Below, piece after piece: positions 45,901 to 62,711 of a stretch of 64,000 bases of DNA; positions within the stretch are counted from its first letter, which is position 1, and every line of letters starts with the position of its first letter. This DNA comes from an uncultured Candidatus Saccharibacteria bacterium (GTDB taxonomy: Bacteria > Patescibacteriota > Minisyncoccia > Phycocordibacterales > CAZPGN01). Where the stretch lies: assembly GCA_964586635.1 (NCBI GenBank), contig CAZPGN010000001.1, positions 72,932-136,931 on the forward strand, in the 5' to 3' direction. Under the pieces are notes generated by a model that saw only the letters and a program-made list of their open reading frames with translations, did no database searches and was not told the origin of the DNA. The position numbers and the translations under genes were made by a program.

Positions 45901-48900
45901 CAGGCCCATCTGTGCGGTAGGCAAACACAGGAGCGTTGCCGACCGCATTCGTGCCGTCCGTTACCCGGCCCGTAATGGTGTATCCAGGTTTTGTCATTTT
46001 AAGCACGAACGGATTTGCGCCGCTTACGCCAGTGGATGCCGAAGTTGAGCCGTCAATGAAGGCATTGCCGGACGAGTCTATGACAACGGAGACCTCACGC
46101 GACTGTCCGACTCCCGGAGCGAACGCACCGACATTGTACGAACCGGAAACAACGCGAATAGAAAATGTGCCATCGATTGCCGTTTGTCCGTGACTACCCA
46201 ACCCAAGGGAGGGCGAGTATGCGTACACGCCCGCATCGGAGACGGTGTTGCCGCTTCCGTCCTTAAGAATGCCTGTTATCGTCTTGTCCGCCACAGAAAT
46301 GGCAAATGTGTATTCTGTAACACGAGACCCGCCAACCGTTGCAATGCATGCAGTCGGACATCCCTTCACTTCGACCTCGATCGGTTTCGGCATTGACCAG
46401 GTGGTGCTAGGCGGCCCAGACATAAAGCCAGTATCGCCCTTCGGCATTGCCGGACCGAAACCGATACCCCAGAACCCGTTCACTTGCGGGAGCGGCATTG
46501 TAGTAACTTTTGTTGCGGAAAGAGCGGCTGTTCCTGGAGTAATCGTGCGCACCACGAATTCACCTGGGCCCCCCGCAAATACATCGAGCTGTTCAGTCGC
46601 TGTGAAAGTATTTAAGGCGGCTGTCATCTTGATATCTATGTTTACAGCAGATGAAGTCGCCGTAAGCGCGAAGTCTCTCGTGATAACGCTTGTCGAGGTT
46701 GCGAGCACCGGCGTCGGGTTGGGTTTGCCGAAGAAACCTGTGGTGGTGCCGGTAGGACTCACTATGGCATTAGTCGACAGCATGTATTCACCACCGCCAC
46801 CAAAGTTGTTCGACAAGAACTCGGTATTGATAGGAATATCGGTAAATTGGTACACGCCGCTCGCGTCAGTTGTACCGATTACTTGACCGATTTGAGGTGA
46901 AAACAGATTTATGTCAACACCTTGGAGGTTCGCGCCATTCCCAGATACTCTCCCACGAATGGTTGTCGTCGCTCCAGAAGAACCTATCCGTCCGTTTATA
47001 TAGATCGGGTTTGCGCTAAAGGTCTCAAGGAGTACTCCAGATGCGTTGCGTGATTTAATGTCTATCGAATAACCAGGGCTGTCGAATCCTTTCGGAATGG
47101 ATGGATTTTTTAGATCTACAACGCCGAACCGTAGGAAATCGTGCGCATCGCCCGATTCGCTGCGCGTCGCGGCATTAAGTGTGAGGGTTACGGTCTTCGC
47201 CGCAGCGTCGCGCGCGATAGCCGCGATGCCAACAGTCCCGGTGCCAGGCCCGTTGATGTCCTTATTTTGCTCATTCAGATATGGGTTGCGGGCTGATGAT
47301 GTCGCCGCACAGCAGATACCGAAATCTGCCGCGGAGGGGAAGGTGAGGACTATGGTGCCGTTTGCGGGTATTTGCCTTGAGATTGGAAGCTCGAAGATAT
47401 AGGTAGTCGAGGCGGAAACGAAATTGGACAAAGTTTGAATGTTCACCGGAGGAACGAAACCGATGCCGGAAGCGGAGAAATCTTTGTGCTCACCGAAGAC
47501 GCTTCCAGAAAAGGTGCCAGGCCCAAGAAGACCGCCACCCGAAGAAGAAAAGCCTGCGACAGTTCCAGTAAAGGTGCCCTCGGTCGTCATCGCATTACCG
47601 CTCATATCCTTGATATTGTTCGCGGTAACTGTGAAGGAAGTGCCGGCTGGAAGCTTTACGCCAGAGATTTGCGCAGTGCGCGTAGTCGAGTCATAGGTGA
47701 CAGAGTGCCCTGCCAGCGCGGAAAGCGTAATGCCTGAACCCGCAGTAACAGAGTAATTCGCAAGCGTCTTCGCATCACCCGAATTGACAGCCTCATTAAA
47801 GGAAATCGCTATGGAGAAATCGTTCGCGTTGGCAAAGAGAATTGAGGGCGGCTGTGTATCGGAATTCGTAGCTTCGACCGTCCAGTCCCGCGTTACCGTC
47901 CCCGCAAGAGGCGTCCCTGAAGTGTTCTTCAGTCCTCCCGCGCCTCCGACGAGCGTCAAACGCAACTGGGAGTTCGAAGGAAGCACATTGTTCGGAACAA
48001 AGTGGCCCTCTTGCGTAACGGGATTGTAATAGACAGTCCCTGGAATATTGGCGCCGCCAACGATGCTCATACTTACCGAGCCGGAGGTTGCCGTTGTCGG
48101 ATCTATTGTGTCATCAAAGACGAAGAGAAAATCATTCATGTTCGCCGCAATTGGTGCGCTTGCACTCGGTAGAACGGATTGCAGAATCGGCGCCGACGAA
48201 TCGGTAGAGCCCGAGGTCGTGAATTTCGAGATATATGCCGTTTGTGCGGCGACGCCGTTTGTATTCCGTACGCCGACCCCGACAGTGAGCGTATAAGTGC
48301 GATTCGCTCCGAGGGATGCAGGCATCATCGTAAGAAGATTCTTGCCGGTCGAAGTGCTCATAACGAAATTGGATAGTACCACCGCCGCGCCAAGGTCATT
48401 CACGAGCGTGATATTCGCGTTCGTGAGCGTGCTGACATTCATATTTGCCTGACTGAATTCTACTGACAACACGGAGAGATTCGTCGGCACATTCTGCGCA
48501 CTGTTGAATGGACTGGCGCCAAGCACCTGCGGGGGCACGAGATTCGTGGAGGTCTGGGTACTTCCGCCGGTCGTAAAGGTGATGGAATACGGCTGGCTTC
48601 CTGCCGTGAATCGGTTCTGGTCGAGTGGATTGCCGGAGATGTCGCGGATGGTGCTAGTGGCAATAAATGCGTAAATCGTACTGGGCGCAAGATTTGCAGA
48701 AAGGATGCATTTTGCCGATGGCTCAAATGCGCTCGGAAACGGATTATACTGTACGCTCCCGCAGAGGTTCGGGTTGGTCAGACTGCTTGCGTTGCGGAGA
48801 GTGACTGTCGTTGTTGCGGTGGCAGAGATAATAGTTCCGGTCGCGATCGTTTTGTTGAAATTGAACCCGATGTACTGCATATCGATTGGTACATTCGTGT

Positions 48901-50128
48901 TCTGGTCGGACGGGAACGACGCCGAAACCATCGGACTTTCGATGTCGAGAAAGCCGCCGCCGAAGGAGAACTCTTTTGGACTCATGCTGTTTTGCGGATA
49001 GACGCCGGCACTCGTTTGCAGAACAAAGTCGGCGCTATTGTCGCCAGTGTCGCCGCTATTGCCGCGAGTGCTTTCAAAACCTCCTTGACTCATAGAGGCG
49101 GCCGAGGCAGTCGAGGTAGATTTGCGCTCGTAACTATTGTCTACGGCGAGATCGGCGAGACGGGTACCTTCTGCGTTCCCCGCCGGCTGTGCCCCCCATG
49201 CGACTCGGTCAATAGATGTCGTCGTCGCGGACGATGTGGCAATACCAAGCGCGCCGTTTGCAATAAGCGTATTGCCGGATAGCGTCGAATACGCGGCGTC
49301 AAGAGCTGTTCCGGAAGAGGTGTAGTTGGTTTGTGAGCCTATAAGGAAAAAGCCATGCTTAGGTATTACGGTGCGGTAGTAGGTAAGAGTTTTCGAGCTC
49401 GCGATTCCGTCCGCATCATAGAGATGAGGGACCAATCCAGAACCCTGCAGATTAAACGCAAACTCGGAAGGGTTGTACAGCTCAAAGAATTCATCGCCCG
49501 CATTACCAGTCGCCCCGAGTCGAAACTCGCTTATCTTAATAGGCACGGTTTGCTCGAGAAGGATAGCGCGACTGCCAGTGAACTGCGTACCAATGGAACC
49601 TCCCGAAGTTGTAATCCAATTTGGCGATGTGGTTGCGTAAAATTGGTGGCCGTTCGTGAGACCAGCCGTAGATGTCGCGAGCGCGACTACAAAAAATTCC
49701 GTGGAGATAGACCCGACCGCGCCGTTGCCCGTGTCGACCGTAATAGTCTGCTCGGTGCTTGTTGCGGGGTCTATGACCATGTTGGCCGCGGTATTAAGAA
49801 GCGTGTCGGAATCGGGTTGGAAACCGAGATTCGCACCGGATTCTCTATAAAGCTGAAGTTTCCAGATCTCGCCATTCGTCAGTTTTGCGACATTCATCTG
49901 CGGAGTCGAAGTCGCCCGAATGGAAACTTTGACATTGGTGAGCGTGGCGCTTCCCGACGATTGAAGAAGACGAAACTGCAAGAGCGGTATGTACGCGCCG
50001 CCTCCAGCTCGCTGATTTTCAAAAAGAACATCGATGGGCGGAGCATTTTCGATAATGGCCGCTCTGGCAACACCCGGCACTGTAGATGCGACTGCGAATA
50101 AGACAAGAGCGATTGCTCGTAACCTCAT
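42920..50128 (-). CDS. giant secreted cell-surface protein (2402 aa): signal peptide, long array of beta-sandwich (Ig-like / CarboxypepD_reg-like) repeats, poly-Gly linker, two C-terminal peptidoglycan-binding (PG_binding_1-like) domains and a terminal coiled coil
   Basis: N-terminus MRLRAIALVLFAVASTVPGVARA. Recurrent SGTVT…G…TDGTYRL-type repeats. A GGGGGGGGGG run. Two copies of LKTGSRSDDVKRLQQ(I/L)LN.DPDTKI…TGPGSP…TDF(F/L)G.LT..A(L/I).KFQ.K. The C-terminus is EKQVKDLQKLIENLQKQVQ. Confidence 0.85.
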   Translation of the reverse strand: MRLRAIALVLFAVASTVPGVARAAIIENAPPIDVLFENQRAGGGAYIPLLQFRLLQSSGSATLTNVKVSIRATSTPQMNVAKLTNGEIWKLQLYRESGANLGFQPDSDTLLNTAANMVIDPATSTEQTITVDTGNGAVGSISTEFFVVALATSTAGLTNGHQFYATTSPNWITTSGGSIGTQFTGSRAILLEQTVPIKISEFRLGATGNAGDEFFELYNPSEFAFNLQGSGLVPHLYDADGIASSKTLTYYRTVIPKHGFFLIGSQTNYTSSGTALDAAYSTLSGNTLIANGALGIATSSATTTSIDRVAWGAQPAGNAEGTRLADLAVDNSYERKSTSTASAASMSQGGFESTRGNSGDTGDNSADFVLQTSAGVYPQNSMSPKEFSFGGGFLDIESPMVSASFPSDQNTNVPIDMQYIGFNFNKTIATGTIISATATTTVTLRNASSLTNPNLCGSVQYNPFPSAFEPSAKCILSANLAPSTIYAFIATSTIRDISGNPLDQNRFTAGSQPYSITFTTGGSTQTSTNLVPPQVLGASPFNSAQNVPTNLSVLSVEFSQANMNVSTLTNANITLVNDLGAAVVLSNFVMSTSTGKNLLTMMPASLGANRTYTLTVGVGVRNTNGVAAQTAYISKFTTSGSTDSSAPILQSVLPSASAPIAANMNDFLFVFDDTIDPTTATSGSVSMSIVGGANIPGTVYYNPVTQEGHFVPNNVLPSNSQLRLTLVGGAGGLKNTSGTPLAGTVTRDWTVEATNSDTQPPSILFANANDFSIAISFNEAVNSGDAKTLANYSVTAGSGITLSALAGHSVTYDSTTRTAQISGVKLPAGTSFTVTANNIKDMSGNAMTTEGTFTGTVAGFSSSGGGLLGPGTFSGSVFGEHKDFSASGIGFVPPVNIQTLSNFVSASTTYIFELPISRQIPANGTIVLTFPSAADFGICCAATSSARNPYLNEQNKDINGPGTGTVGIAAIARDAAAKTVTLTLNAATRSESGDAHDFLRFGVVDLKNPSIPKGFDSPGYSIDIKSRNASGVLLETFSANPIYINGRIGSSGATTTIRGRVSGNGANLQGVDINLFSPQIGQVIGTTDASGVYQFTDIPINTEFLSNNFGGGGEYMLSTNAIVSPTGTTTGFFGKPNPTPVLATSTSVITRDFALTATSSAVNIDIKMTAALNTFTATEQLDVFAGGPGEFVVRTITPGTAALSATKVTTMPLPQVNGFWGIGFGPAMPKGDTGFMSGPPSTTWSMPKPIEVEVKGCPTACIATVGGSRVTEYTFAISVADKTITGILKDGSGNTVSDAGVYAYSPSLGLGSHGQTAIDGTFSIRVVSGSYNVGAFAPGVGQSREVSVVIDSSGNAFIDGSTSASTGVSGANPFVLKMTKPGYTITGRVTDGTNAVGNAPVFAYRTDGPGHADSFTDSSAGTYTLYVDSGAWKVNVFIPGFGQMTEQTVTVAGANQENIDFAPASTLNFSILSGNIYEDSNSDAAFTAGEGIEGAIIRVSGSSGTNEAVSGSDGAYSVRVRSGSGYSIADIFKPGYGRIAALGNSGAAIGAIDLTASTTQNIRVAPRRTITINIKDSNGNLLEVPKAFIDLFDTSTQLGNHVEITSASSTSLQIANGASTTIRAFIQGVPSSNISVASDDGTNTLVLSGVLQVNGAETIKIVVNTASANLSVVSGTVYHTAATSGNELTDAWISFVNESNGVFAGTQATTSGAYRLSLVDGTYKVIVSKPGYIDTPTSITISGNTTRNFVLTSASRSISGTVTAGGSLSANAFVRAVRVGGGQAVTKTDTDGTYRLSVGEGTWRVFAAAEGYVEAAAAANPISIGANSASSITVALTTTASISSTLMTSNTFTDTSAGSISDTATKVKVDLDANTLGSAGSNSYLTVKETSNFPNTVSVNIVASKAKDINAYSGSSQVKNLQTGKKASIELTYTKAELALSDVDTSAEVDKLKVVSYSEDKKEWESLSTVLTYKDSSGNVITSPASNLSNVSTVAFTSIGSHFSLYALSSATNSDAPAAPANLTATAGNPGSNTITLSWNSSDDSTGYFIYRDTSDTGSFPLLNVPGNVTNYTDTAVTNGTTYYYKVSASKESGSVESAASSAVSAKVNVLGGGGGGGGGGSAPSYLGGSVSDHVLSKTPAISAPASASQGASVSAATLPNPPATPSITAISVSPVFTRVLKTGSRSDDVKRLQQILNSDPDTKISDTGPGSPDNETDFFGLLTKLALQKFQKKHGIISSGSEETTGFGVLGPKTRAKLQEVSSVGVSPAVPATPASVSAAFTRSLDIGTRGEDVKRLQQLLNNDPDTKIANTGPGSPGSETEFLGTLTQKAIGKFQEKYNLAKPSDPGYGFVGPMTRAKLGELGAPTASSVSTEAELEKQVKDLQKLIENLQKQVQVRLGQ

Positions 50129-50282
50129 GGTATGTAAATGAAAATTGATAATGTTTAATCAGAACGAAAAATGGCAAGGATTGCTGTCCTTGCCAAGTAT
50201 TATATTTTCTTTTCGCCGGAAGCAACAGAAGGTTATCCCCGTTCAAGAAAAACGTCGGCTATATATAAATAGGTTAAAATGA

Positions 50283-50324
50283 AAAAGCCTGTGAGAGCGG
50301 CAAGTGATGCCGCTCCCACAGGCT
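50283..50324 (-). terminator. Rho-independent terminator downstream of the pilin-like/SPFH operon (minus strand)
   Basis: The minus-strand reading GCCTGTGGGAGCGGCAtcactTGCCGCTCTCACAGGCTTTTTCATTTT gives a roughly 15-bp stem followed by a T run. Confidence 0.6.
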
Positions 50325-50900
50325 TCAGTTTAGAACAATTTTTATTCTTGCGACTCCAGTCCATAACTTGGGCAAGAGTCGCGTTCTCACCTCCTTTATG
50401 AAATTCCCATAATCATCTGGGTCGGGTTCGTATTTTTCCGACCCCTTATTGATTTGGGTAAGCTCTCCGCAGAGAGCGTCGTCAAGGTCGAGCATTCCCG
50501 ACTCAAACTGGTGAGGGTCGAGAATGTATCTTCCCTTCTCCTCGGTCGGCAGAAGTACGCCGACCGAGAATGTTCCCCTCCAGGCCCTCTCGCCGAAATG
50601 GTCCACGGCTCGTGAAAGACGAGCCTTGAACCCGACAGTCCTGTGCGGCGGCAGAGTGTCCTCTATGATGAGGACACTCTGCCGACGCCATACTCGAACT
50701 GGGATCTCCCCCGTTGGGGCGTCCTCCTCCGAGGGGGAGCCGTGATACCACTGCCCGCGGAGGAAGCCTCGACGCGACCACGACGCAACCGACGATTGTT
50801 CGTCGACTGCTCCGAGAAATAGATGCAGACAGAGTGTCATGGAGAACAGCACCCCCGCTCCTGTCAAGACCTTCTTCCAGACTCCTCTGAACTGCATCAC
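50325..50900 (-). CDS. hypothetical secreted/membrane-anchored protein (191 aa)
   Basis: N-terminal hydrophobic segment VLTGAGVLFSMTLCLHLFLGAV. Last gene of the operon before the terminator. No family recognised. Confidence 0.4.
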   Translation of the reverse strand: MMQFRGVWKKVLTGAGVLFSMTLCLHLFLGAVDEQSSVASWSRRGFLRGQWYHGSPSEEDAPTGEIPVRVWRRQSVLIIEDTLPPHRTVGFKARLSRAVDHFGERAWRGTFSVGVLLPTEEKGRYILDPHQFESGMLDLDDALCGELTQINKGSEKYEPDPDDYGNFIKEVRTRLLPKLWTGVARIKIVLN

Positions 50901-51976
50901 TTACTCCTTTTGTTGAGAATCTTCCCAAGAAGTTCGGCAATCGGCCCGGCATTTTCGATCGAGAATGCCGTGCGCGAAGTGTTCTTATCTCGCGAAGCCA
51001 TGACCATGTTCGCGGCCGTGGCTTTGTCGACTCCTGTCTCCAGCATTATGCGCCGTATATTGCGCGTCATGCTCTCGACATCAACATCTTGAGCCTCGGC
51101 GATCGCCCTCGCCTGACCCTGCTGTTCGAGAGCTTTCTTCGTATCCGTGGTGAAGTCAAAATCCTTCACCAGGACATCAAGGATACCGATACCTAGGCGC
51201 TCCTCGATGTCTGAATGGAGTTTATCCCTCCAATACATGAAGTGCCTCAACAGGTCGCAGTAGTATACTGCGTAGAACTCGTAGAGACCGAGTTTCTGCT
51301 GGCAATGTGCATCCCAAGCCGAAATTATTGCGAGACGATTATCATTCATCACGCCGCCAACTGCTTCTTCTGGGTAATACCCCAGAGACAAACGGCAGGC
51401 GAGACGGAGCGCCACCACTTTTGTTGACTTGAGCGCCTCCTCGACGCTCATTGTCGAGAGCATCTCGAATGCGCAAGCCTTCGCGTGGCGCTCTAGCCAA
51501 TCGACGTGCTCGTTTGTCTTTACGAGAAAATACCGACCGACATCGGTTATCTCGTAATTTATTACGACATCGGCTACGACATCTAGACGATTTCCGGCAT
51601 CCATTACTATTTCAACAGGTATTTTTTCCGTTCTTGCCCGAACATCTATTGGGCCACTGTTCCCAGATATAATCTCGTGGAAAGGCGTGGGTAGAACATT
51701 GAGTCCTGCTGTGAGCACAAATCCGGCGACAGGTTTTCCGAAGAGAAAAACCTGCGCTCCGTGGTATTCAGGCACGAACTTTATACATGCCAGACACCAC
51801 GACACGAGAAATGCCGCCAGCGTGAGAACGAAAGCGAACCATGCCACGCTTGTCCATTGTATTGGATGTATTGGACTTACAATGAACTGAATGCTCACCC
51901 TCGCCACGAACAAAGAGACGCACACCAGAACTATGGAGTAGAAACTACTCCATCGACTCCAATTCAGATTTTTCAC
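50897..51976 (-). CDS. SPFH/band 7 (stomatin/prohibitin-like) domain membrane protein
   Basis: N-terminal TM helices, then FLFGKPVAGFVLTAGLNVLPTPFHEI…IDVRARTEKIPVEIVMDAGNRLDVVADVVINYEITDVGRYF. This matches the SPFH pattern of stomatins (…PGLNFI.PF.D…D.P.Q…T.DN..V.VD.V.Y..V.D). Coiled-coil C-terminus. Confidence 0.5.
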   Translation of the reverse strand: MKNLNWSRWSSFYSIVLVCVSLFVARVSIQFIVSPIHPIQWTSVAWFAFVLTLAAFLVSWCLACIKFVPEYHGAQVFLFGKPVAGFVLTAGLNVLPTPFHEIISGNSGPIDVRARTEKIPVEIVMDAGNRLDVVADVVINYEITDVGRYFLVKTNEHVDWLERHAKACAFEMLSTMSVEEALKSTKVVALRLACRLSLGYYPEEAVGGVMNDNRLAIISAWDAHCQQKLGLYEFYAVYYCDLLRHFMYWRDKLHSDIEERLGIGILDVLVKDFDFTTDTKKALEQQGQARAIAEAQDVDVESMTRNIRRIMLETGVDKATAANMVMASRDKNTSRTAFSIENAGPIAELLGKILNKRSK

Positions 51977-52142
51977 GAAGAAACCCTCTCTTTAGTCAGT
52001 AGATTTCAAAGGTCAATTTGATGTGCTTTATATCATAATATGATTGTGTCGTCAACTAGCTAGGTGTGGTATTAGTCCAACAACGAAACAGCCCGCGAAA
52101 ACCTTTGGTTTTCGCGGGCTGATCGATTCCGAATTCGGCACA

Positions 52143-52400
52143 TCAGAAACTACGCACTGTCGATATAATGAGATTCACAATGCCAAATGCAGAAACCATG
52201 ATCGCCATGCCGAGAACTCCCCATACCATGTGCTGTTTCCCCTTTGTCAATCTACTTTCATCTCCCGCGGCGCTTACAAACTCAAACACTCCCCAAAGGA
52301 AGAATATGAGGGCTAGGCCAAACAAGAGACGGATCAGCGGATTAATAATCGCGTCATTAATCTTGCCGATTACAGGAAGGGCTTGAGCAGAGCGATACAT
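52143..52400 (-). CDS. small 2-TM pilin-like protein (paralog 5; lacks the N-terminal signal region)
   Basis: Shares the family core I.P..xLA.I.F.WG…A.GD…WGV…S..G.VN with the four upstream paralogs. Architecture resembles TrbC/VirB2-type pilins. Confidence 0.4.
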   Translation of the reverse strand: MYRSAQALPVIGKINDAIINPLIRLLFGLALIFFLWGVFEFVSAAGDESRLTKGKQHMVWGVLGMAIMVSAFGIVNLIISTVRSF

Positions 52401-52417
52401 ACCATGTGTATATATGC

Positions 52418-52891
52418 TTAACGAAAGATACCTCCTATTTGCTCAAGGATATTGCCGATATTCCCGCCTGTGCCGCCCGCACCCTGGCCAGGAGCGGCCT
52501 GAACTCCGGGAGATTGCACTGCTGGGCCTTGGAATACACCTCCTCCCGCCGTAACGCCAAACGATCTGCCGACAAGCAATACAAGGCTGTAAACTGATAC
52601 GAGCACAAAGAGGGCAACGAGGCCCCAGGTCATTATCTCGCGCCCTTCAGCTCTATTGCTAGAGTCTTTTGCCGAGCTAATGTACTCAACGAGCCCCCAC
52701 ATGAAGTAAATCACCGCGATCGTAATAACGATAGGGATGATTATATTGAGGATGCTCTGCACCTGCACAAGTATCGTCTGAACAGTGCTCTGATCACGAG
52801 TCGCAGTTTGGGCAAAAACAAGCACGGGAGCAAAATACATGCCAATTGCCGCCAAAACGCGCGCATATACGCTGGTAATATAATTATGCAT
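52418..52891 (-). CDS. small secreted 2-TM pilin-like protein (paralog 4) with Gly/Gln-rich C-terminal tail
   Basis: Signal-like N-terminus, core IIIPIVITIAVIYFMWGLVEYISSAKDSSNRAEGREIMTWGLVALFVLVSVYSLV, then a low-complexity GGGVFQGPAVQSPGVQAAPGQGAGGTGG tail. The start is trimmed to MHNYIT. Confidence 0.45.
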   Translation of the reverse strand: MHNYITSVYARVLAAIGMYFAPVLVFAQTATRDQSTVQTILVQVQSILNIIIPIVITIAVIYFMWGLVEYISSAKDSSNRAEGREIMTWGLVALFVLVSVYSLVLLVGRSFGVTAGGGVFQGPAVQSPGVQAAPGQGAGGTGGNIGNILEQIGGIFR

Positions 52892-53002
52892 AATTATATG
52901 TTGTTGACTGTGGTATGTTACTTTTTTCGACCAAAAATATAACTGGCGACATACCGCGCCATCCCGTGCGCGCCGCTTCGGCATGCACGGGATGGCGCGC
53001 TA

Positions 53003-53467
53003 CTAGAAGCCAAAAAGTCCTCGCAGGGCTTCGCCAAAAAGCTGTTGGGATGATCTGATGGGCGAAGTCTGGCTTCCTCTAGAACTGGGTTGAGTAGCGG
53101 AGAAGCTACCCGATGAACTCCCGGCAAATCGCAGTTGCGGCACATTAGGCTGGGTATTCTCAAGATCGAGTGTCCGAGCAACAACATTAACGAGACCATA
53201 GACCGATGTCATTACAAAAAGCGCTATCACTCCCCAAATCATTATTTGTCTCCCCTCCTGCTTCGCATCTCCCGCGCCCTTTATGTATTGGGCAACTCCC
53301 CACATGAAATATATAAGCGCGAGCGCGATAATGACCGGAATGATACCGTTCAGCATCGAAAGCACTTTATCAATAAGTGTCCCGAGCGTCTGACCTTGCG
53401 CAAATGCGGTCCCAGACGGCAAAAGCGCGACAGATAGAAAAGCTATGACTTTATCTATTTTTTTCAT
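53003..53467 (-). CDS. small secreted 2-TM pilin-like protein (paralog 3) with Ser-rich C-terminal tail
   Basis: Signal peptide MKKIDKVIAFLSVALLPSGTAFAQG. Core GIIPVIIALALIYFMWGVAQYIKGAGDAKQEGRQIMIWGVIALFVMTSVYGLVNVV. Confidence 0.5.
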   Translation of the reverse strand: MKKIDKVIAFLSVALLPSGTAFAQGQTLGTLIDKVLSMLNGIIPVIIALALIYFMWGVAQYIKGAGDAKQEGRQIMIWGVIALFVMTSVYGLVNVVARTLDLENTQPNVPQLRFAGSSSGSFSATQPSSRGSQTSPIRSSQQLFGEALRGLFGF

Positions 53468-53468
53468 A

Positions 53469-53882
53469 TCAATTTAGGAGTCCTATTGTACTTTGAACGA
53501 CCCCAGCAATAATGTCAGCTCCGACTAAGATACCGATTCCGATGACCGTCCACAGAAGCGTCGCCTTCGCAGTCTCAAGCTGTTTCTCGTCGCCGCGTGC
53601 TGTGACAAAAAGGAACCCCGCGTACACAATAAAGAGAATGGCGACGGGAATAGCAAGCTGAACGAGCGCGTCAAGTATTTTTGCAATTAGCTGGTTGAGT
53701 GTGCTTACCTCCCCAAGCGGATTCGTGAGACCACCTCTTGTACCGCCAGAACTTGGTTGGAACACGCCCGTTCCTTGCGCTCTTGCGACACTCACCGAGA
53801 CAAGGTGAGCGCCTAGCACAAGCATAGCGCATATCGTGCGCGCCCCGTATCTCATTTTCTTAATTGTGTGGATAAATCGCAT
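53469..53882 (-). CDS. small secreted 2-TM pilin-like protein (paralog 2)
   Basis: Signal peptide, then LAIPVAILFIVYAGFLFVTARGDEKQLETAKATLLWTVIGIGILVGADIIAGVV. Same architecture as the neighbours. Confidence 0.5.
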   Translation of the reverse strand: MRFIHTIKKMRYGARTICAMLVLGAHLVSVSVARAQGTGVFQPSSGGTRGGLTNPLGEVSTLNQLIAKILDALVQLAIPVAILFIVYAGFLFVTARGDEKQLETAKATLLWTVIGIGILVGADIIAGVVQSTIGLLN

Positions 53883-53883
53883 A

Positions 53884-54285
53884 TTAGATTTCTACGCTAC
53901 CGCCAGTAAGGGCAAATAGGATAAACCGCACGATAATGTATGCCGCGGCCGCAAGCGCGATGCCGATCACCGTGTTCTTCATTATGTCTTTTGCGTCGCT
54001 TCGCTGACTTTCGTTCCCCGCAGAAGTTATAAAGAGAACTCCAGCGACACCAAACGAAAGCGTTCCGACCACTACGGCGAATGTCACAAAGAATTGCAAC
54101 ACGCGATCTGCAAGGCCTCCCTTTCTGATAAGGTCGTTGAAGGTACAGTTGTACACGCACGGCACTATTGGCTGTTCGCTCTGTGCATACGCGACTGGCG
54201 CGAGCGCCGCGGTTCCTCCGAGAACGGAAAGAACGGCAAACGTGACGAGACACAATATAGCTATTTTTTGTCCGGCTGTGCGCAT
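53884..54285 (-). CDS. small secreted 2-TM pilin-like protein (paralog 1)
   Basis: Signal peptide MRTAGQKIAILCLVTFAVLSVLGGTAALAPVAYAQ. Two hydrophobic helices separated by a short polar loop (TSAGNESQRSDAKD), as in TrbC/VirB2 pilins. Confidence 0.5.
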   Translation of the reverse strand: MRTAGQKIAILCLVTFAVLSVLGGTAALAPVAYAQSEQPIVPCVYNCTFNDLIRKGGLADRVLQFFVTFAVVVGTLSFGVAGVLFITSAGNESQRSDAKDIMKNTVIGIALAAAAYIIVRFILFALTGGSVEI

Positions 54286-54288
54286 AAG

Positions 54289-55602
54289 TTAAAATGGTGT
54301 TTGAAATAATTGCCCGAGCTGTTCCCTGGCGCGATTTATCGCTTCTAGCTCCCGAAGCCTGCCGCCGACTACGGCATCTATCATACCCGCGAACACCTGC
54401 CGCGAAGCAATCGGGAATGGATCGAGCCACCCTCTCGCGATGAGCCCTGAACGGCTGACCACATCAAGGAATGGGTCGGTGTTGCCTTGCGCAAGGGCAT
54501 CGCGGCGTGCAGATGCCAAGCGGAGGCCGTTTGCGGCAAGTTGCGAATTATTGCCCGATGCAAGCGCGCTGATAATTGAAAAAGCGGCGGCCGGGTTTTG
54601 CGACGCCCTGGTGAGCGCCAGTGCATAGACAGCGCCAAGTGTCGTTGTGCGCCTCTCTCGAATTTGCGGAACAATTGCGGCATCAAAATTGAGGTGCGGA
54701 TTGATCGCTCGAATAAGGGACTCGGAGCTCGCATAATCGAGATACAGCGCGACCTGATTTCCGGCAAATGCTTCCATCGCAGAGGCAAATCCTCGATTCC
54801 AGGTATAGAGACGGCTGTCAATGTTGCTGAACTGGGTATAGAACCGGAGTGCCGCATCTGCAGGAAGCAAAGGACTATCGTCAGGAGACAAACCAAATGC
54901 GAGATGCACGAGCTTGGTGGCAGTTCTTGCGACAATTTGATCCCCCGATTGCACTAGCAGAAGCGCGAGAATATCTGGAGCATTGGGAATGTTGAACGCA
55001 TCACCAAGCGCGATCGCGCTCTGGGTTATGATACCGCGATCGCCGCGCTTGGTAAGGCGGGGCGTATTCGCAACAACTTCCTCCCAGTGTTGGGGCGCCT
55101 TGGCAATGCCTGCGCTTGCAAACATATCTCGATTCCAATAGAGCACAACGGGGTCTATTAACCAGGGCAAACCGAGTACTCCCTCTGGCGCAAGAAACAG
55201 TTCTCCAGCCTCCGCAAATGTGTCTCGGAACGACCGCTCCGGCAAATTTTCATATGGAATAGGGACGATCTTATCTGCATGCCTTATAATGAGCGAATTT
55301 GGAAGAATGACGATATCGGGCCCGCGGCCGCTCGCGAGCGCGGCGACAAGCTCTTGGTCGAAGGTTATTGGATTTCGCTCGGAATAGCTAACGCGGAGAC
55401 CTCGGAACGCGCGCGCCGCCTCGGCCACAGCTTCTCCAACTCCCGCCTCGGGCAATGTCCCCCAAATGACCACGGAGCCAGAAAGTTCGGAAGAACCCCC
55501 ATTGCCGCCAAGCGAAGTCGCTGAAAACAAAACGAGTGCCACGACAGAGAGGAACATAAACACCCCAAGGACAACGAGCTGGAATGTAGTTAGATTCTTC
55601 AT
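54289..55602 (-). CDS. membrane-anchored extracellular solute-binding-protein-like protein (ABC SBP family 1-like)
   Basis: N-terminal TM, then GSVVIWGTLPEAGVGEAVAEAARAF…GPDIVILPNS. This resembles the SBP_bac_1 N-lobe (…TLTVW…F…PDVV). No permease or ATPase genes are adjacent. Confidence 0.45.
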   Translation of the reverse strand: MKNLTTFQLVVLGVFMFLSVVALVLFSATSLGGNGGSSELSGSVVIWGTLPEAGVGEAVAEAARAFRGLRVSYSERNPITFDQELVAALASGRGPDIVILPNSLIIRHADKIVPIPYENLPERSFRDTFAEAGELFLAPEGVLGLPWLIDPVVLYWNRDMFASAGIAKAPQHWEEVVANTPRLTKRGDRGIITQSAIALGDAFNIPNAPDILALLLVQSGDQIVARTATKLVHLAFGLSPDDSPLLPADAALRFYTQFSNIDSRLYTWNRGFASAMEAFAGNQVALYLDYASSESLIRAINPHLNFDAAIVPQIRERRTTTLGAVYALALTRASQNPAAAFSIISALASGNNSQLAANGLRLASARRDALAQGNTDPFLDVVSRSGLIARGWLDPFPIASRQVFAGMIDAVVGGRLRELEAINRAREQLGQLFQTPF

Positions 55603-55611
55603 GTCAGCGGA

Positions 55612-56142
55612 TTACTGTTTCTTGAAAAAAACGCCCCAATGGTGCTCTCCCGCATCGAATGCGCGCTCATCAGAAAATCCCGCATCTATAAACATCCTCG
55701 CCGCTTTCTCTCGACTAACAATGTTCTCGGGGCGCGGCCCTAAACCGCCAAAAGAATCGCTCCAGTCAATGACTGCCGCGCTCCCGCCTGACCGCAGTAC
55801 GCGGTATGTTTCGCGCGCGACCGCCGCGCCGTCTTCTGCCTGGAAGAGAATATTTGATACGAGAACGAAGTCCATCGATCCATCGCCAAGACCCGAACCG
55901 TGCGGCGTGTCGAGGTCGCCCGGCAGAACTTCTATCGTTGTTAACCGCTCGGCCTTGGCCTCTGAGTATAAGCGCGACAGCAAGTCTTTCTGGACATCGA
56001 CGGCATACACGCGACCAGTATCTCCAACTCGCTTTGCCATCTCGAGCGCATACGCGCCGCTTCCCGCGCCGAGATCGGCGACCTTCATGCCTTCACGGAG
56101 TCCAAACCTGGCAACATTTCGTACTGGGTCGGCAAACGCCAT
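55612..56142 (-). CDS. class I SAM-dependent methyltransferase
   Basis: VADLGAGSGAYALEMA is motif I. RVYAVDV is the acidic post-I motif. MDFVLVSNIL is motif II. Confidence 0.65.
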   Translation of the reverse strand: MAFADPVRNVARFGLREGMKVADLGAGSGAYALEMAKRVGDTGRVYAVDVQKDLLSRLYSEAKAERLTTIEVLPGDLDTPHGSGLGDGSMDFVLVSNILFQAEDGAAVARETYRVLRSGGSAAVIDWSDSFGGLGPRPENIVSREKAARMFIDAGFSDERAFDAGEHHWGVFFKKQ

Positions 56143-56234
56143 ACATCATAAGTGTACCACGCATCGCATACTGCCTCACTCCAGTTATCTACAGTCTCCA
56201 CAAGTAGCGCAACTTCAAAACGCAAATCCAATCA

Positions 56235-58691
56235 CTAGAGGAGCGTGAGAGATGCGATGGTGTCTTTTTCACGCAATTTCATAATACGCACTCCTTGTGT
56301 TTGGCGCCCAAGAACAGGGACCTCTGCCATCCCAGTACGTATAACTTGACCATTTTTAGAGATTGCTACAAACTCCGAGACCGTGTCAGTAACAACACGA
56401 GCGACCATTATCTTACCGGTCTTTGATGTAACATTTGCCGTCTTAATGCCGCTTCCGGCTCTCTTTTGTACCTTATACTCGGGTAGCGCAGTTCGTTTGC
56501 CGTAACCGTTCTCACTCATAATCATAAATGTTGCCGCGACATAATCCGCGGTAATAACCTCCGCCCCAACAACCGAATCTCCTTTTTTTAAGGTTATTGC
56601 CCGAACGCCGCCCGCCGCACGCCCCATCTCGCGAACATCCGATTCCTTAAAGCGGATAGACTGGCCATTTGCCGTGGCAAGGATAACAGTATCGCCCTTT
56701 TCCGCAAAGAATGCCGAAAGAAGCTGGTCGCCATCATCAAGACGGATAGCCGCCAGACCGTTGCGGCGCACATCCCGAAAGTTTGCCGCCGAAACTTTTT
56801 TTATAACACCCATGCGCGTCACCATCACCAGCGAGAGGTCTTTCTGTCGCGTAACTTTTGGCATGGGGAGAACGGATGTCACTCGATCGTCACTCGTAAG
56901 CGACAGGAAATTCATTATGGATTTTCCACGGGTCGCACGCCTTCCCTCGGGCAAGTCATACATTTTTATTTGGTAGGCGCGGCCGCTATCCGTAAAGAAG
57001 AGAAGGTCGTCGTGCGTATTTGCCGTCAGGAAAATCGTTATGAAATCCTCCTCTTTAATATCAAGGTCGACCACACCTATGCCGCCTCGGCGTTGTGCTC
57101 GATATTCTGATGGGTCAGTGCGCTTCACATAACCGCCAGCCGTGAGAACGAGCACATTCTCCGCTTCAGGAACAAGATCTTCTTCGGTAATTTCCTTCAC
57201 GCCCTGTCTCACAATGCGTGTGCGGCGATCATCACCATATCGTTCCGCGATCTCCTTAAACTCTGTCTTTATAACAGCAAGAATCTTTTCGGGATGCGCA
57301 AGAAGGTCTTTCAAATACACAATGAGCTTGCGAACCTCTTCGAGTTCATCCTCTATTTTCTTGCGCTCGAGTCCCGCGAGTTTCTGCAAGCGCATATCAA
57401 GAATTGCAGTTGCCTGCCGATCCGAGAGAGCAAACTTCTTCATGAGGTTCGCATGGGCGGTCGGAGTATCACTCGACCCCTTGATGGTCTTGATGACTTC
57501 ATCGATATGGTCAAGCGCTTTCTTCAAACCAGAAAGAATGTGTTCGCGATCCTCTGCTTTCGAAAGATCATACTTCGTCCGCCGCGTAACAACTACGCGG
57601 CGGTATTTCAAAAATTCTTCCAGCACGCCACCCAGAGAGAGCGTCCGTGGAATGCCGTCAACGAGAGTTACCATGTTGTAATTAAAGGTCGTTTCGAGCG
57701 GCGAATGCTTGTAAAGGTAATTGAGCACCTTTTGAGGATTGACTCCCTGCTTCAGCTCTATCACGACGCGCGTTTCTTTCGTGGATTCGTCGCGAATATC
57801 GCGCACGCCTTCCAGCTTCTTTTCTCGAACTTGGTCAGCGATACCTGTTATCATTTCAGCCTTGTTCACCTGATACGGAAGAGAGTTGATGATGATATGA
57901 AAACTTCCTGCCTTTTCTTCGACTATCTCTGCCTCGCCCCGCACTACCACGCCCCCTCTGCCGGTCGCATACGCGTGATGAATATCAGTTCGGTTGTATG
58001 CAATGCCGCCCGTCGGAAAGTCGGGGCCTTTTACATACTTCAGCAAGTCTTCTGTCGTTGCGTCTGGATTGTCGATACGATACACAAGCGCATCAATAAG
58101 TTCGCGCAGATTGTGCGGCGGTATCTTCGATGCCATGCCGACAGCGATACCAACAGTGCCGTTTAGAAGAAGGTTCGGGACTGCGGACGGAAGCACCGTA
58201 GGCTCATTGCGGGTCGCATCATAATTCGGCGCAAAATCAACAGTACCTTTTTCAATATCGCGCAGAAGCTCGCTTGAGAGCCGCGACATACGCGCCTCCG
58301 TATACCTCATAGCGGCGGCCGAGTCGCCATCGACACTGCCAAAATTGCCCTGGCCTTCTACCAATGGGTAGCGCATATAAAAATCCTGCGCCATCTTAAC
58401 CATCGCGTCATAAACTGATGTATCGCCGTGCGGGTGGTACTTTCCGAGCACATCGCCGACAACTGCCGCAGATTTGCGGAACTTCGCCTGGTGCGTCAGA
58501 CCGAGTTCGTGCATGGAATATAAAATACGGCGATGCACGGGTTTTAACCCATCTCGGACATCAGGAAGCGCCCTCGAGACAATAACGCTCATCGCGTAAT
58601 CTAGGTATGACTCGCGCATTTCCGGAACGATATTGGTCGAAATGATGCGTTCTGTCGTTGACTTCTGTTGTTTTTTTGGGTCGTCTGCCAT
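56235..58691 (-). CDS. gyrA: DNA gyrase subunit A
   Basis: [29 protein letters not shown] is the GyrA N-terminus. The active-site Tyr region is [10 protein letters not shown]. The C-terminal beta-pinwheel repeats include a GyrA-box-like QRRGGIG. 818 aa. Confidence 0.9.
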
Positions 58692-58694
58692 AGT

Positions 58695-58913
58695 TTACGG
58701 CTTAATAAAATCCAATACGGCGCCAAGAATCATTGAAATTTGCTTGCTGATTGTCGCAGAAGGATTTGCGTCGATGGTGGAAGAAAATGGGTTAAAAATA
58801 ATCCATGAAATGGAAATCGATGCGACGATGATCAGCGAAACACCCCAAGCTATATTCCTTCTCTCTTTTTCCGGCAAGCGCCGCAAGCGCGCAATCCTAT
58901 CCACGATCGTCAT
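58695..58913 (-). CDS. small hypothetical membrane protein (72 aa)
   Basis: One TM (IAWGVSLIIVASISISWIIF). Stop-start is adjacent to gyrA. Confidence 0.3.
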   Translation of the reverse strand: MTIVDRIARLRRLPEKERRNIAWGVSLIIVASISISWIIFNPFSSTIDANPSATISKQISMILGAVLDFIKP

Positions 58914-58932
58914 AAATAATATCTATGAGTCT

Positions 58933-59562
58933 CTATTGCGGCTTAAGTACTGATATAATTCCCGTCCCGCTTCCGACATCTTTCTTTTTAATCGTCAATT
59001 TTTCAACCGTCTCGCTCTCGACAACTCCCTCCGCCTTCAGGAATTTCTTAAGGGCATCCTCGTTTCCGTCGTAGAGCGGCACTATGTATGTCGGTTCAAG
59101 CATTGTCGCGACCTTGTGCGCATCGGCGGGCGGCAGGGCGTCGGGTCCAGCGATCAGAATAAAGACAACATCGACTTGACCAATCTGCTCTCTGACGGCG
59201 GCGGTAATCTCGTCTTTCGAGCGCAGAAACCCGAGATGACAAAGCGAAATATCATCGAGACGCGCCACGAACACAGTGTTAGTCTGCGCGCCAGCGGCAT
59301 CGCCAACAACCGTGGGAATGCCTTTCACAAACACGCCGCTTACCTCGTACTCTCCCGGCCCGTCTATAACGAACGGCGCTCGATCGCCGTAGGTCGCATT
59401 TTCGACCCCATTTGCGTCAGGGTGGTCCATCGACACAAAAACGATATCAGCGCCAAACTTGCTTGGTTTTGCGTCCGAATTCCTAGAAATCGGATTAAAT
59501 GCGAGCACAAAATCTCCCTGGGCAACCTTAACTGTGGCTCGCTTATGATAGCTTAGGACCAT
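58933..59562 (-). CDS. metallo-beta-lactamase-fold hydrolase (UPF0173-like)
   Basis: DIVFVSMDHPDANGV is an HxHxDH-like metal motif region. 209 aa. Confidence 0.55.
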   Translation of the reverse strand: MVLSYHKRATVKVAQGDFVLAFNPISRNSDAKPSKFGADIVFVSMDHPDANGVENATYGDRAPFVIDGPGEYEVSGVFVKGIPTVVGDAAGAQTNTVFVARLDDISLCHLGFLRSKDEITAAVREQIGQVDVVFILIAGPDALPPADAHKVATMLEPTYIVPLYDGNEDALKKFLKAEGVVESETVEKLTIKKKDVGSGTGIISVLKPQ

Positions 59563-59660
59563 ATGTACATTATAGCATATTTCACCTACTTATGCACGGG
59601 CAACGGGGTTAGGTTGACCATCGGCCTGTTGCGCGCCATACTGCGGTTGGACAGAAAGGA

Positions 59661-60521
59661 GTGTTACAAATGCTGGATAGGATGGTTCCCATAGGCGAGC
59701 CGACAAAAAACTCCCTTATTGAAAGGAGAAGCAGGGAGGCTGAAGGATGTTCGGGGGTGGGGTGCGGACAATGCCTTGGCAGAAACGCCTTGAGCATCGG
59801 GCTTGGTTTTGTGAGCGCCGCAAGCTCTTTCGCGACGAATACCTTCGGTTTGTTTGGCGCTTCGGGTGGTTTCGCCATGACAATGACAACCTGCATCGCC
59901 GCCGTAGGCGTTGGAGCAATTGTCTTTCTCCTGATGCCGCACGGTCTTGCCCATTTCGTTGTTGCTCGGTGGCGCGCGCGCAGAACCCTTTCGGGGAAAG
60001 CTCATGTGTTCCTGGTTGAGGCGGTTGACTTCATGTCAAGCCAGTTCGATGAACGCATCGCGCGACTTACGAGTGCCGGCAACCAAAGACTGCTTCAGGT
60101 TCAACACCTGCTTAAGCAAGCCGCATTGGTCAGGAACAGAGTTTCGACTGACGAGGCGATATCGCCAGAACAATCTTCACTCACCGAAGAAGCCCTAAGA
60201 CAAGTCGAGCTTCTCGGCTTATACGAGAAAGCATGTCAATCATTCCTCAACCGGATAGCAGAGAAACAGACTGCCTTCCATAACCGCATGAAAGACATTC
60301 GCGCTCGACTTAATTGTATCGCCGCGTTTGACGAATTACCGCTCCCCATAGAGCGAGATACCGTTCAATATGTGGCATTGCTCGAATATGAAATGCACGA
60401 ATTGCTCGAGAGCGGCAACTCTGCGATTGCTGAAATTGCAGAGACGGCTCTTCCGGAGCCGCAATCCAGAATCGAGCAAAAGGAGCTAGAATCTCGTGGC
60501 CTCTTGGGGGCTGCAAAATGA
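59661..60521 (+). CDS. hypothetical membrane protein with a C-terminal coiled-coil region
   Basis: Good SD (AAAGGAG, 9 nt upstream). Two hydrophobic segments, then a helical Q/E/L-rich C-terminus. No family recognised. Confidence 0.45.
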   Translation: MLQMLDRMVPIGEPTKNSLIERRSREAEGCSGVGCGQCLGRNALSIGLGFVSAASSFATNTFGLFGASGGFAMTMTTCIAAVGVGAIVFLLMPHGLAHFVVARWRARRTLSGKAHVFLVEAVDFMSSQFDERIARLTSAGNQRLLQVQHLLKQAALVRNRVSTDEAISPEQSSLTEEALRQVELLGLYEKACQSFLNRIAEKQTAFHNRMKDIRARLNCIAAFDELPLPIERDTVQYVALLEYEMHELLESGNSAIAEIAETALPEPQSRIEQKELESRGLLGAAK

Positions 60522-60583
60522 ATCCAAACTGGTCTTTCCCGCAATCCCTGACATAACCACTTGCCAGGGATTCTTCCTTTGGG

Positions 60584-60791
60584 ATGAAGGGGTCAGGAGC
60601 CTTCATAATACCGCCTCGCGCAAAACATTTTCAAAAGCAAGATAATCAGCGTCAGTTTGGAAAATTGGTAGTCGTGCGTTAGCGCGATTGATGATATGGT
60701 AAACGACGTCTCCGACATCGGTGCGTGGTGGGCGTGGCATACTGTTCAGTGTAGCACAAAATGGATATGAAGGCTCCTGACCCCTTCATTC
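60584..60791. mobile_element. REPIN-like element: two copies of the 23-bp REP hairpin in inverted orientation (60584..60606 and 60769..60791) enclosing a truncated RAYT/IS200-like transposase remnant
   Basis: ATGAAGGGGTCAGGAGCCTTCAT at 60584 and its exact reverse complement at 60769. The 162-bp interior encodes the N-terminal 45 aa of a Y1 (HUH) transposase. Confidence 0.55.
60603..60740 (-). pseudogene. truncated REP-associated tyrosine transposase (RAYT) / IS200-IS605 TnpA-like N-terminal fragment (45 aa; HUH motif and catalytic Tyr missing)
   Basis: Hand translation of the minus strand gives MPRPPRTDVGDVVYHIINRANARLPIFQTDADYLAFENVLREAVL*. This matches the conserved N-terminus of COG1943/Y1_Tnp proteins (MPR.AR…HH...RG..R..IF.DD.DY..FL). 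The stop lies inside the flanking REP hairpin. Confidence 0.5.
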
Positions 60792-60852
60792 CTAGCTTGC
60801 ACAGATATGTCTTTTCGCGTATATTTGAGCGGCATTATCAATATAATCATTA

Positions 60853-62004: not shown

Positions 62005-62607
62005 TTACTCGCATTTGTTGAATCGATTCATTGCCACCGATAATCCCTCCTCAATAATAGTATCGATAGCTTCGGCGGTTCGCCGCAGAATGACGGGAAG
62101 CTTGGCCGCTTCTCGCGCGGAAAATCGCCCAAGCACGAACTGCTCCACGGCATCTTTTCCGAGTGGCTTATGAGCTACTCCCTGGTCGTCGGTCGGCGCG
62201 AGACCGATGCGGATACGACAAAATGCATTCGTTGCGAGCGCGTCAATGATGGATTGCACGCCACGATGTCCTGCCGAACCTCTATCGAACGAAATTTTAA
62301 TCGAACCGAACGGCACATCGATATCATCGTGGCACACGACAAGCGCCCTGCCATCAAAGTCGCCGGACACAATGCGCCGCACAGCGTCGCCCGACAAATT
62401 CATAGAGGTTTGAGGAAGCACAAGCATAACGGACAGTCCATGCATGGCGCCTTCCGAAATTTGCGCCGCGCGACGAGGGTCAATATGCCAGTCCGAAAAC
62501 TCCGGCCGCGCGGCGCGATACGACTCGAGCGCCATGCGGCCGACATTATGGCGCGTCTTTGCATATTGCTCGTCAGGATTTCCGAGGCCGACAATGGTGT
62601 ATATCAC
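62005..62607 (-). CDS. pth: peptidyl-tRNA hydrolase
   Basis: MIYTIVGLGNPDEQYAKTRHNVGRM is the Pth N-terminal signature (GLGNPG..Y..TRHN.G). DDIDVPFGSIKISFDRGSAGHRG is also present. Confidence 0.85.
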   Translation of the reverse strand: MIYTIVGLGNPDEQYAKTRHNVGRMALESYRAARPEFSDWHIDPRRAAQISEGAMHGLSVMLVLPQTSMNLSGDAVRRIVSGDFDGRALVVCHDDIDVPFGSIKISFDRGSAGHRGVQSIIDALATNAFCRIRIGLAPTDDQGVAHKPLGKDAVEQFVLGRFSAREAAKLPVILRRTAEAIDTIIEEGLSVAMNRFNKCE

Positions 62608-62711
62608 ATATATAGCGTACAGGCAGACAACTCTGCGTGCAACAAAAACTCTATTTTGTACAAAGGCAAAGCGATGTAGTACAATTGCGTGGTGGAAACG
62701 GAAAAAAATAC

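Follow-up and report, generated by a model that had tools for sequence, protein, structure and literature searches.

Nine consecutive minus-strand genes, spanning 56142..50284 of a 64,000-nucleotide stretch from an uncultured Candidatus Saccharibacteria bacterium (the window; GenBank assembly GCA_964586635.1, contig CAZPGN010000001.1, positions 72,932 to 136,931), encode a methyltransferase, a membrane-anchored MalE-type solute-binding protein, five VirB2-like pilins (pil1–pil5), an SPFH protein, and an orphan protein. We favor, with moderate confidence, an explanation in which the methyltransferase/binding-protein/pilin unit (~56142..52089) is a surface module serving a type IV secretion system (T4SS) encoded elsewhere, and the SPFH pair (52055..50284) is a separate unit. 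An earlier interpretation made from the letters alone (hereafter, the sequence-only reading) had proposed a single surface-appendage operon of eight genes. All eight open reading frames (ORFs) are present where it placed them, and the 176-aa methyltransferase gene ahead of them (55612..56142) had been overlooked. Its family assignments of the binding protein, the pilin-like proteins, and the SPFH protein are right by Pfam; the 191-aa ORF matches no family. The general idea of an envelope or appendage locus is supported as well, with the SPFH and 191-aa genes falling outside the pilin unit.

Conservation and probable transcription units of the locus

We collected 83 loci encoding the binding-protein family, three by exact look-up and 80 as species representatives, with up to 10 kb on either side, and annotated them with profiles built from the proteins of the window. 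Among the 61 species-level loci with more than 3 kb of downstream sequence, an automated rule finds 60 in which the binding-protein gene is followed at once by a pilin array on the same strand, and in the single automated miss (L042) the array is present on inspection. The co-conservation of the binding protein with the pilins, on which the sequence-only reading depended, is strong. The arrays comprise 5 genes in 22 loci, 6 in 17, 4 in 14, 7 in 3, 3 in 2, 2 in 1, and 1 in 1, and the first pilin gene follows the binding-protein gene at a median distance of 7 bp. The methyltransferase gene lies immediately upstream of the binding-protein gene in 58 of 63 loci, at a median gap of 5 bp, and is therefore probably the first gene of the binding-protein/pilin unit. 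GyrA is encoded upstream in 55 of the 63.

The block is embedded in a conserved backbone, which reads HisRS, LepB, Pth, S1, a metallo-beta-lactamase-fold protein, a small protein, GyrA, methyltransferase, binding protein, pilins, a variable zone, RbfA, IF2, cysteine desulfurase, a trypsin-like protease, and ClpB. The same backbone occupies 35163..63320 of the window; L018, L022, L030, and L057 are examples among the relatives. Its sole strongly variable zone is the one immediately downstream of the pilin array. In L014 and L031, additional genes lie between gyrA and the binding protein, and the binding-protein/pilin pair is unbroken. To judge from this gene content and order, the block is a core-genome surface module of Paceibacteria, the largest class of Patescibacteria. 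The GenBank proteins HYS59_01935 and HYS59_01960, which have exact matches in the window, assign it to a Candidatus Vogelbacteria MAG of this class.

In the window, the stop codon of the methyltransferase gene lies 9 bp ahead of the start of the binding-protein gene (54289..55602, 437 aa), and the gaps from the binding protein to pil1 (53884..54285, 133 aa), from pil1 to pil2 (53469..53882, 137 aa, or 128 aa by the GenBank start), and from pil2 to pil3 (53003..53467, 154 aa) are 3, 1, and 1 bp, respectively. A stable hairpin (52951..53003; −52.1 kcal/mol, z-score −7.8) directly follows pil3. The gap between pil3 and pil4 is 18 bp by the longest ORF of pil4 (to 52984) and ~110 bp by the start at MHNY, which yields a normal signal peptide (VFA↓Q) and a protein of 157 aa (52418..52891). 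Another 17 bp separate pil4 from pil5 (52143..52400, 85 aa), and the array is closed by an intrinsic terminator (52089..52121) with a 15-bp stem, 10 GC pairs, and a UUUCGUUGUU tail (−35.2 kcal/mol, z-score −5.3). The gap of 166 bp between pil5 and the SPFH gene (50897..51976, 359 aa) contains this terminator, a promoter-like site read from the sequence (TTGACG-17 nt-TATAAA, 52027..52055), and a ribosome-binding site. The promoter-like site was omitted by an automated promoter scan, the scanner demanding T at position 6 of the −10 hexamer. The SPFH gene and the gene of the 191-aa protein (50325..50900; 190 aa from the ATG at 50897) overlap as TGATG. They end at the terminator with which the sequence-only reading had bounded its operon, here confirmed at 50284..50326 (19-bp stem, U-tract with a UUUUUCAUUUU tail; −37.7 kcal/mol, z-score −9.3). 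All these features lie on the minus strand.

The uniform spacing of 0–20 bp described in the sequence-only reading fails at the pil5–SPFH junction and, with the MHNY start, at the pil3–pil4 junction. The single eight-gene operon is not supported either: the SPFH and 191-aa genes sit behind a terminator, and every one of the 28 relatives with an SPFH gene nearby carries the pair on the opposite strand, so that co-transcription of the pair with the array is not the conserved state. As read from the sequence, the likely transcription units are the methyltransferase, binding-protein, and pil1–pil3 genes; the hairpin, pil4, pil5, and the array terminator; and the promoter-like site, the SPFH gene, the 191-aa gene, and the final terminator. 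A second promoter candidate, GTAACA-17-TATAAT ahead of pil4, was rejected; the match ends 1 nt from the ATG and is probably not the promoter of pil4.

Among 68 related arrays, 18 have a strong hairpin behind the third pilin, compared with 1–6 at the other junctions, and this junction is the one most often widened. The hairpin of the window therefore belongs to a recurrent design, which suggests a conserved sub-operon break. It is a candidate attenuator or a candidate element of mRNA processing or stability.

The binding protein and the pilin array

The binding protein matches Pfam SBP_bac_1 and SBP_bac_8 at 2.6e-14 and 3.1e-13 (54.4 and 50.6 bits; cut-offs 26 and 27). More than 540 full-length homologues, at ~36–43% identity, all come from Parcubacteria/Paceibacteria-type genomes. 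An AlphaFold model built from an alignment of 33 homologues (predicted local distance difference test score, pLDDT, 91.8; predicted template-modeling score, pTM, 0.86) has an N-terminal membrane helix (residues 6–31), a short Gly/Ser linker, and a complete two-lobe fold. The anchor is this single hydrophobic helix, delimited as residues 3–34 or 6–31. Foldseek places oligosaccharide-binding proteins at the top of its matches to the model (5ci5, 4r9g, and 2zyo; E ~1e-22, template-modeling score up to 0.72–0.80). Structural and profile matches together comprise Tlet_1705 (5CI5), the mannooligosaccharide-binding CpMnBP1 (4R9F/G), cyclo/maltodextrin- and beta-1,2-glucooligosaccharide-binding proteins, and MalE. 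Both lobes are present in the model and in the Foldseek matches, and the N-lobe-only protein of the sequence-only reading has to be given up. The modeled protein would be exposed at the outer face of the cytoplasmic membrane, held by one helix, with a MalE-type oligosaccharide-binding fold kept.

Aromatic and polar residues predominate among the invariant positions of the family (W47, Y73, D96, D150, N157, W173, N204, Q218, Y266, W268, N269, and R367). D150 falls on the MalE ligand residue E111, a hint only, given the rough alignment at ~17% identity to a MalE sequence that is four residues short. The conserved residues fit a family that keeps its sugar pocket, which is suggestive. The window also encodes, on the minus strand at 1085..10465, a ROK glucokinase, PGI, 6-phosphogluconate dehydrogenase, G6PD, a GH15 glucoamylase-like protein, a GH57 protein, and a GT4/GT5 glycogen-synthase-like protein. 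Such an alpha-glucan/glucose cluster would fit a malto- or other gluco-oligosaccharide as the ligand of the binding protein.

Transporter partners were sought around the binding protein. Within the fetched stretches of the 83 loci, a scan for Walker-A plus LSGGQ motifs finds no ATP-binding cassette (ABC) importer ATPase; the only ORF with both motifs, in L014, encodes an exporter-like protein of 627 aa and lies ~8 kb upstream of the binding-protein gene. In the window, the larger ORFs were scanned with Pfam and show no ABC component. The lack of transporter partners near the binding protein, noted in the sequence-only reading, is borne out. The methyltransferase is a class I S-adenosylmethionine (SAM) methyltransferase by Pfam (Methyltransf_25/11/31), and an NCBIfam scan gives only generic methyltransferase matches, none at the curated cut-off.

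The five small proteins after the binding protein are VirB2-like pilins. The Pfam family PF18895 (T4SS_pilin) is matched above its cut-off of 26.6 bits by pil1 (9.6e-8, 32.4 bits), pil2 (4.1e-12, 46.4 bits), pil4 (3.3e-8, 33.9 bits), and pil5 (5.5e-7, 30.0 bits), and pil3 (7.4e-6, 26.4 bits) falls 0.2 bits short. Pil2 is also above the gathering score of PF04956 TrbC (1.9e-7; 31.6 bits, cut-off 27.9). Pairwise BLASTP (E 6e-24 to 1e-3) identifies pil1–pil5 as genuine paralogs. The five paralogous pilin-like proteins recognized in the sequence-only reading are thus borne out. All five in addition match NCBIfam NF045849 (E 4e-7 to 8e-4; 19–29.5 bits), below the curated 40-bit cut-off; these weak sequence matches hint at VirB2-like proteins in monoderm-type T4SS beyond Patescibacteria. 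Pil1–pil4 have AxA↓Q-type signal peptidase sites (AYA↓Q in pil1, VFA↓Q in pil4), followed by two hydrophobic helices that a short polar loop connects. The AlphaFold model of pil2 (pLDDT 81) consists of a signal helix and a helical hairpin (helices 53–85 and 90–127). The alignment of pil5, which has no signal peptide, begins at the mature N-terminus of the other pilins, and similar members of 80–92 aa recur at later positions in relatives. An identity as type IV pilus (PilA-type) subunits was considered and rejected: the signal peptides end in AxA↓Q and are not of class III (G↓F/M-TLIE), and there is no type IV pilus Pfam match.

The pilins fall into two types. Type A, at positions 1 and 2, is TrbC-like and has an NPL motif that precedes helix 1; type B, from position 3 onward, has an MWG..EY motif. 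Pil1 has the position-1 pilin as its best match in 46 of 67 loci, and pil2 has the position-2 pilin in 44 of 68. The best matches of pil3–pil5 are spread interchangeably over positions 3–6 (3–5 for pil3). Long C-terminal tails rich in Gly, Ser, Pro, and Thr occur in about one third of the arrays and are concentrated at positions 3 and 4. In the window, the tail of pil3 (53003..53165) is 54 aa long and Ser/Gln-rich, that of pil4 (52418..52560) is 46 aa long and Gly/Gln/Pro-rich, and pil5 is a type B core. The short hydrophobic motifs at the ends of the two tails are similar (…EALRGLFGF and …EQIGGIFR). By these sequence comparisons, positions 1 and 2 appear to be held by ancient conserved pilin subunits and the positions from 3 onward by a more fluid set. 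The pattern fits a hetero-oligomer with a fixed core and variable, surface-decorated subunits; interchangeable antigenic variants fit it less well.

The SPFH pair and the surrounding genes

The SPFH protein matches Band_7 (PF01145; 8.5e-10, 39.4 bits, cut-off 23.6) and has hydrophobic segments at residues 9–36 and 39–69. A profile of the ~400-aa proteins found after related arrays matches it at 2.3e-9, and 22 of the 29 SPFH-like proteins collected, including that of the window, match Band_7. Among the 49 loci with enough sequence for this count, an SPFH gene lies at most 4.5 kb after the array in 28, on the opposite strand (convergent) each time, and is absent from the neighborhood in 21. In 25 of the 28, a partner protein of 150–470 aa is encoded between the SPFH gene and the array, often with a 4-bp overlap, and is predicted to have one to three membrane helices, 24 of the 25 proteins having two or three. 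The window bears the same cassette, inverted. An SPFH scaffold gene beside pilin-like genes, as the sequence-only reading had it, is thus a recurrent arrangement. Since a terminator lies between them and the strand is opposite in the relatives, the SPFH gene is, on the genomic evidence, best regarded as a frequent neighbor with its own transcript and not as a member of the conserved pilin operon.

The 191-aa protein has one N-terminal membrane or signal segment and matches nothing in Pfam, NCBIfam, PADLOC, or PHROG. Searches of protein libraries of 5.8 billion (word-indexed) and 1.84 billion (exhaustive phmmer) entries return only its own GenBank entry, and jackhmmer against the related loci finds only the protein itself. 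Neither NfeD nor any other Pfam family is found in it or in the 25 positional partners at E values up to 0.05, and the partners (loci L002–L080) are mostly singletons among the 83 loci. The partner slot thus appears to hold fast-evolving, hypervariable membrane proteins beside a conserved scaffold gene.

Next to the final terminator lies the gene of a 2402-aa surface protein (42920..50128, minus strand) with LTD, Big_5, and several CarboxypepD_reg domains. Two C-terminal PG_binding_1 domains agree with the giant wall-anchored protein announced in the sequence-only reading. The gene has its own upstream region and is placed in the variable zone, outside the conserved block. Four tRNA genes (Cys, Leu-TAA, Lys-CTT, and Leu-TAG; 41973..42843, plus strand) lie between it and rbfA. 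The remainder of the window encodes housekeeping functions (GyrA, S1, Pth, LepB, IF2, RbfA, ClpB, TopA, DprA, RelA, tRNA synthetases, and sugar catabolism). A low-GC island at 11991..16000 (0.36–0.39, compared with ~0.50) begins with a tyrosine integrase (11991..12833), continues with ORFs without a family, and is probably an integrated mobile element. PADLOC and PHROG give no defense or phage signal except a generic methyltransferase domain, and a defense or phage reading of the locus was dropped.

Competing explanations and known systems

In the favored explanation, the binding protein would be co-transcribed and translationally coupled with the pilins. The pilins, with sites of the signal peptidase I type, would be inserted through Sec and then be used by the chromosomal Patescibacteria T4SS encoded elsewhere, building a pilus or an envelope-spanning conduit at the contact with the host cell. 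The binding protein, perhaps touching the pilins, would recognize a host-derived or host-surface oligosaccharide and thereby mediate attachment, sensing, or the capture of sugar released at contact. The hairpin after pil3 would lower or separate the expression of the distal pilins, tuning the proximal:distal ratio. The SPFH protein and its coupled small membrane protein would be an independently transcribed membrane-scaffold pair, inverted in this genome.

Several observations weigh against this explanation. Pfam scans of the ORFs of the 64-kb window find no VirB4, VirB6, or coupling protein, and the 83 fetched loci have no recurrent large protein near the array that could be VirB4. With no T4SS genes linked to the block, only the family membership of the pilins leads us to assume that they depend on a T4SS. 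A link to a T4SS, which the sequence-only reading had named as grounds for giving up its own proposal, accordingly exists at the family level (PF18895) and not in the gene neighborhood. Comparison of the pil2 model with the solved VirB2 and TraA pilins is uninformative. In the rough MalE alignment, the binding protein of the window appears to depart from the family consensus at two strongly conserved positions, S103 (D/E in 29 of 33) and P209 (K in 32 of 33), and these substitutions could alter its ligand binding. The hairpin after pil3 has no adjacent U-tract, which makes the role proposed for it tentative. In addition, the HisRS–ClpB region is syntenic across Paceibacteria, and the conserved adjacency of the binding protein and the pilins is for this reason weaker functional evidence than it would otherwise be.

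This synteny underlies the most serious rival, that an ABC sugar importer, with its permease and ATPase encoded elsewhere, has the binding protein as an ordinary substrate-binding subunit, and that this protein adjoins the pilins through a static gene order. We consider this possible but rather unlikely. The HisRS–gyrA–IF2–ClpB backbone is conserved in the fetched loci and in the window, the fold and the conserved residues, polar and aromatic, match those of a functional protein of the MalE type, and the GH15, GH57, glucokinase, PGI, and G6PD set of the window is one that an importer could feed. On the other hand, the pilins follow the binding protein after only a few bases (median 7), a spacing that suggests translational coupling, the pair is intact in the loci with a disrupted upstream order (L014 and L031), and no importer ATPase occurs in the fetched stretches. 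The zone just after the array is highly variable, and the region is therefore not uniformly frozen. The eight-gene module of the sequence-only reading, in which the SPFH protein organizes a microdomain for the assembly of pilins and binding protein with the 191-aa protein as a secreted component, we judge improbable. It has in its favor that an SPFH gene is near more than half of the arrays (28 of 49), that the SPFH protein of the window matches the profile of its array-neighboring counterparts, that 22 of the 29 SPFH-like proteins, its own included, match Band_7, and that a small membrane protein is encoded in coupling with the SPFH gene in the window as well as in 25 relatives. Set against these are the terminator and promoter-like site between the array and the SPFH gene, the opposite strand in 28 of 28 relatives and the absence in 21 of 49 loci, and the orphan state of the 191-aa protein, whose positional counterparts are mostly singletons. 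Moreover, SPFH pairs are established as general membrane-scaffold or quality-control modules in many bacteria.

The small two-helix proteins might also be no pilus subunits but a membrane channel or receptor platform that takes substrate from the binding protein, in T4SS-independent, non-ABC uptake or signaling. We regard this as very improbable. In its favor, neither the window nor the 83 loci show a T4SS gene linked to the block, the distinct conserved subunits at positions 1 and 2 fit a hetero-oligomer, pil5 and the similar 80–92-aa members have no signal peptide, and no VirB2-type pilus is known from Patescibacteria, for which a review speaks only of a 'potential to elaborate conjugative pili' (PMC12857230). 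However, all five proteins match T4SS_pilin, pil2 matches TrbC/VirB2 above threshold as well, and Saccharibacteria encode members of this family within their essential T4SS locus (PMC10633639). The block also contains no energizing component. To our knowledge, there is no precedent for such a two-helix transporter fed by a binding protein, which counts against the channel. A bolder proposal, to which we give a low probability, is that the methyltransferase/binding-protein/pilin block is a self-contained, core-genome Paceibacteria organelle, in which the MalE-type protein works with a VirB2-like filament or channel and not with an ABC permease, recognizing host glycans and taking up oligosaccharides that derive from the host. 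If true, this would be a new kind of binding-protein-dependent attachment or uptake apparatus and the first functional handle on why Patescibacteria retain T4SS pilins.

An oligosaccharide-type binding protein is a concrete, soluble, and expressible partner for probing the ligand, the localization, and the interaction with the pilins, and the conserved (positions 1 and 2) and variable (position 3 onward) pilins form a defined set for structural work. The role of the T4SS and pilin arrays of Patescibacteria has been called completely unknown (PMC11665869), although in the only species examined they are essential. In cultured Paceibacteria, T4SS pilins rank among the five secreted proteins with the highest expression (PMC10936435). 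The pairing of binding protein and pilins, kept in dozens of related species, is a testable clue to the role of these unexplained proteins.

Parts of the locus resemble several known systems. SPFH–NfeD gene pairs, such as yuaF–floT and yqeZ–yqfA of B. subtilis and qmcA–ybbJ of E. coli, likewise couple an SPFH gene translationally to a small membrane protein gene, whereas the partners here have no NfeD match and are hypervariable. In the Sulfolobus bindosome, sugar-binding proteins that carry type IV pilin signal peptides are assembled by a pilus-type system, and in Agrobacterium the sugar-binding protein ChvE signals to a T4SS through the sensor kinase VirA. Both are functional analogies only, linking a sugar-binding protein with pilus-type assembly or a T4SS rather than only with an ABC permease; here, the binding protein has no type IV pilin signal and there is no sensor kinase. 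With the binding proteins of the MalE/CUT1 group (CpMnBP1, 4R9F/4R9G; Tlet_1705, 5CI5; and 2ZYO), our protein shares the two-lobe fold and the Pfam families. It differs from them in its transmembrane-helix anchor, the lack of a nearby permease or ATPase gene in the fetched loci, the probable co-operonic arrangement with pilins, and an identity of only 16–20% to any solved protein.

The pilins resemble Agrobacterium VirB2 and RP4 TrbC (PF04956) in the cleavable signal peptide, the two hydrophobic helices, the short charged loop, and the small size. Unlike VirB2 and TrbC, they are five paralogs of two types in a monoderm envelope and outside a virB operon; one member is without a signal peptide and two have long C-terminal tails. 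The Mbov_0395 family of the Mycoplasma integrative and conjugative element (NF045849), a VirB2-like protein of a wall-poor monoderm, is matched weakly over the whole 80-residue model, and no such element surrounds the genes here.

The sequence-only reading could match its module to no described system. In fact, the small genes are VirB2-like T4SS pilins, and tandem arrays of them have been published (PMC12102498, PMC10633639, and PMC12857230). A survey of 3,035 genomes reports 441 pilin arrays of 2–11 genes, widespread in Patescibacteria, and places the T4SS of Paceibacteria usually near dnaA; its figure mapping arrays on the VirB4 tree covers arrays near virB4 (Fig. S9 legend, PMC12102498). 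Surveys confined to the virB4 neighborhood would leave a large fraction of pilin arrays uncounted. That survey and PMC10633639 mention neither the binding protein nor the SPFH protein, and full-text literature searches for the combination found nothing. We could not find a description of this arrangement, in which the array lies apart from virB4, follows a methyltransferase and a MalE-type protein, and keeps a constant place in the core genome of Paceibacteria. The closest known counterpart is the array of Southlakia epibionticum (S. epibionticum, Saccharibacteria), which has six divergent VirB2-like pilins inside an essential T4SS locus (ML1, SEML1_0006–0019; PMC10633639, reviewed in PMC12857230). 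Both are tandem arrays of divergent PF18895/PF04956 genes in a monoderm ultrasmall host, with five genes here, six in ML1, and 2–11 in the survey (PMC12102498), and paralog identity is low in all. Unlike the ML1 array, the array described here stands away from virB4 and other T4SS genes, is led by a methyltransferase and a MalE-type protein, lies beside gyrA, and belongs to the class Paceibacteria.

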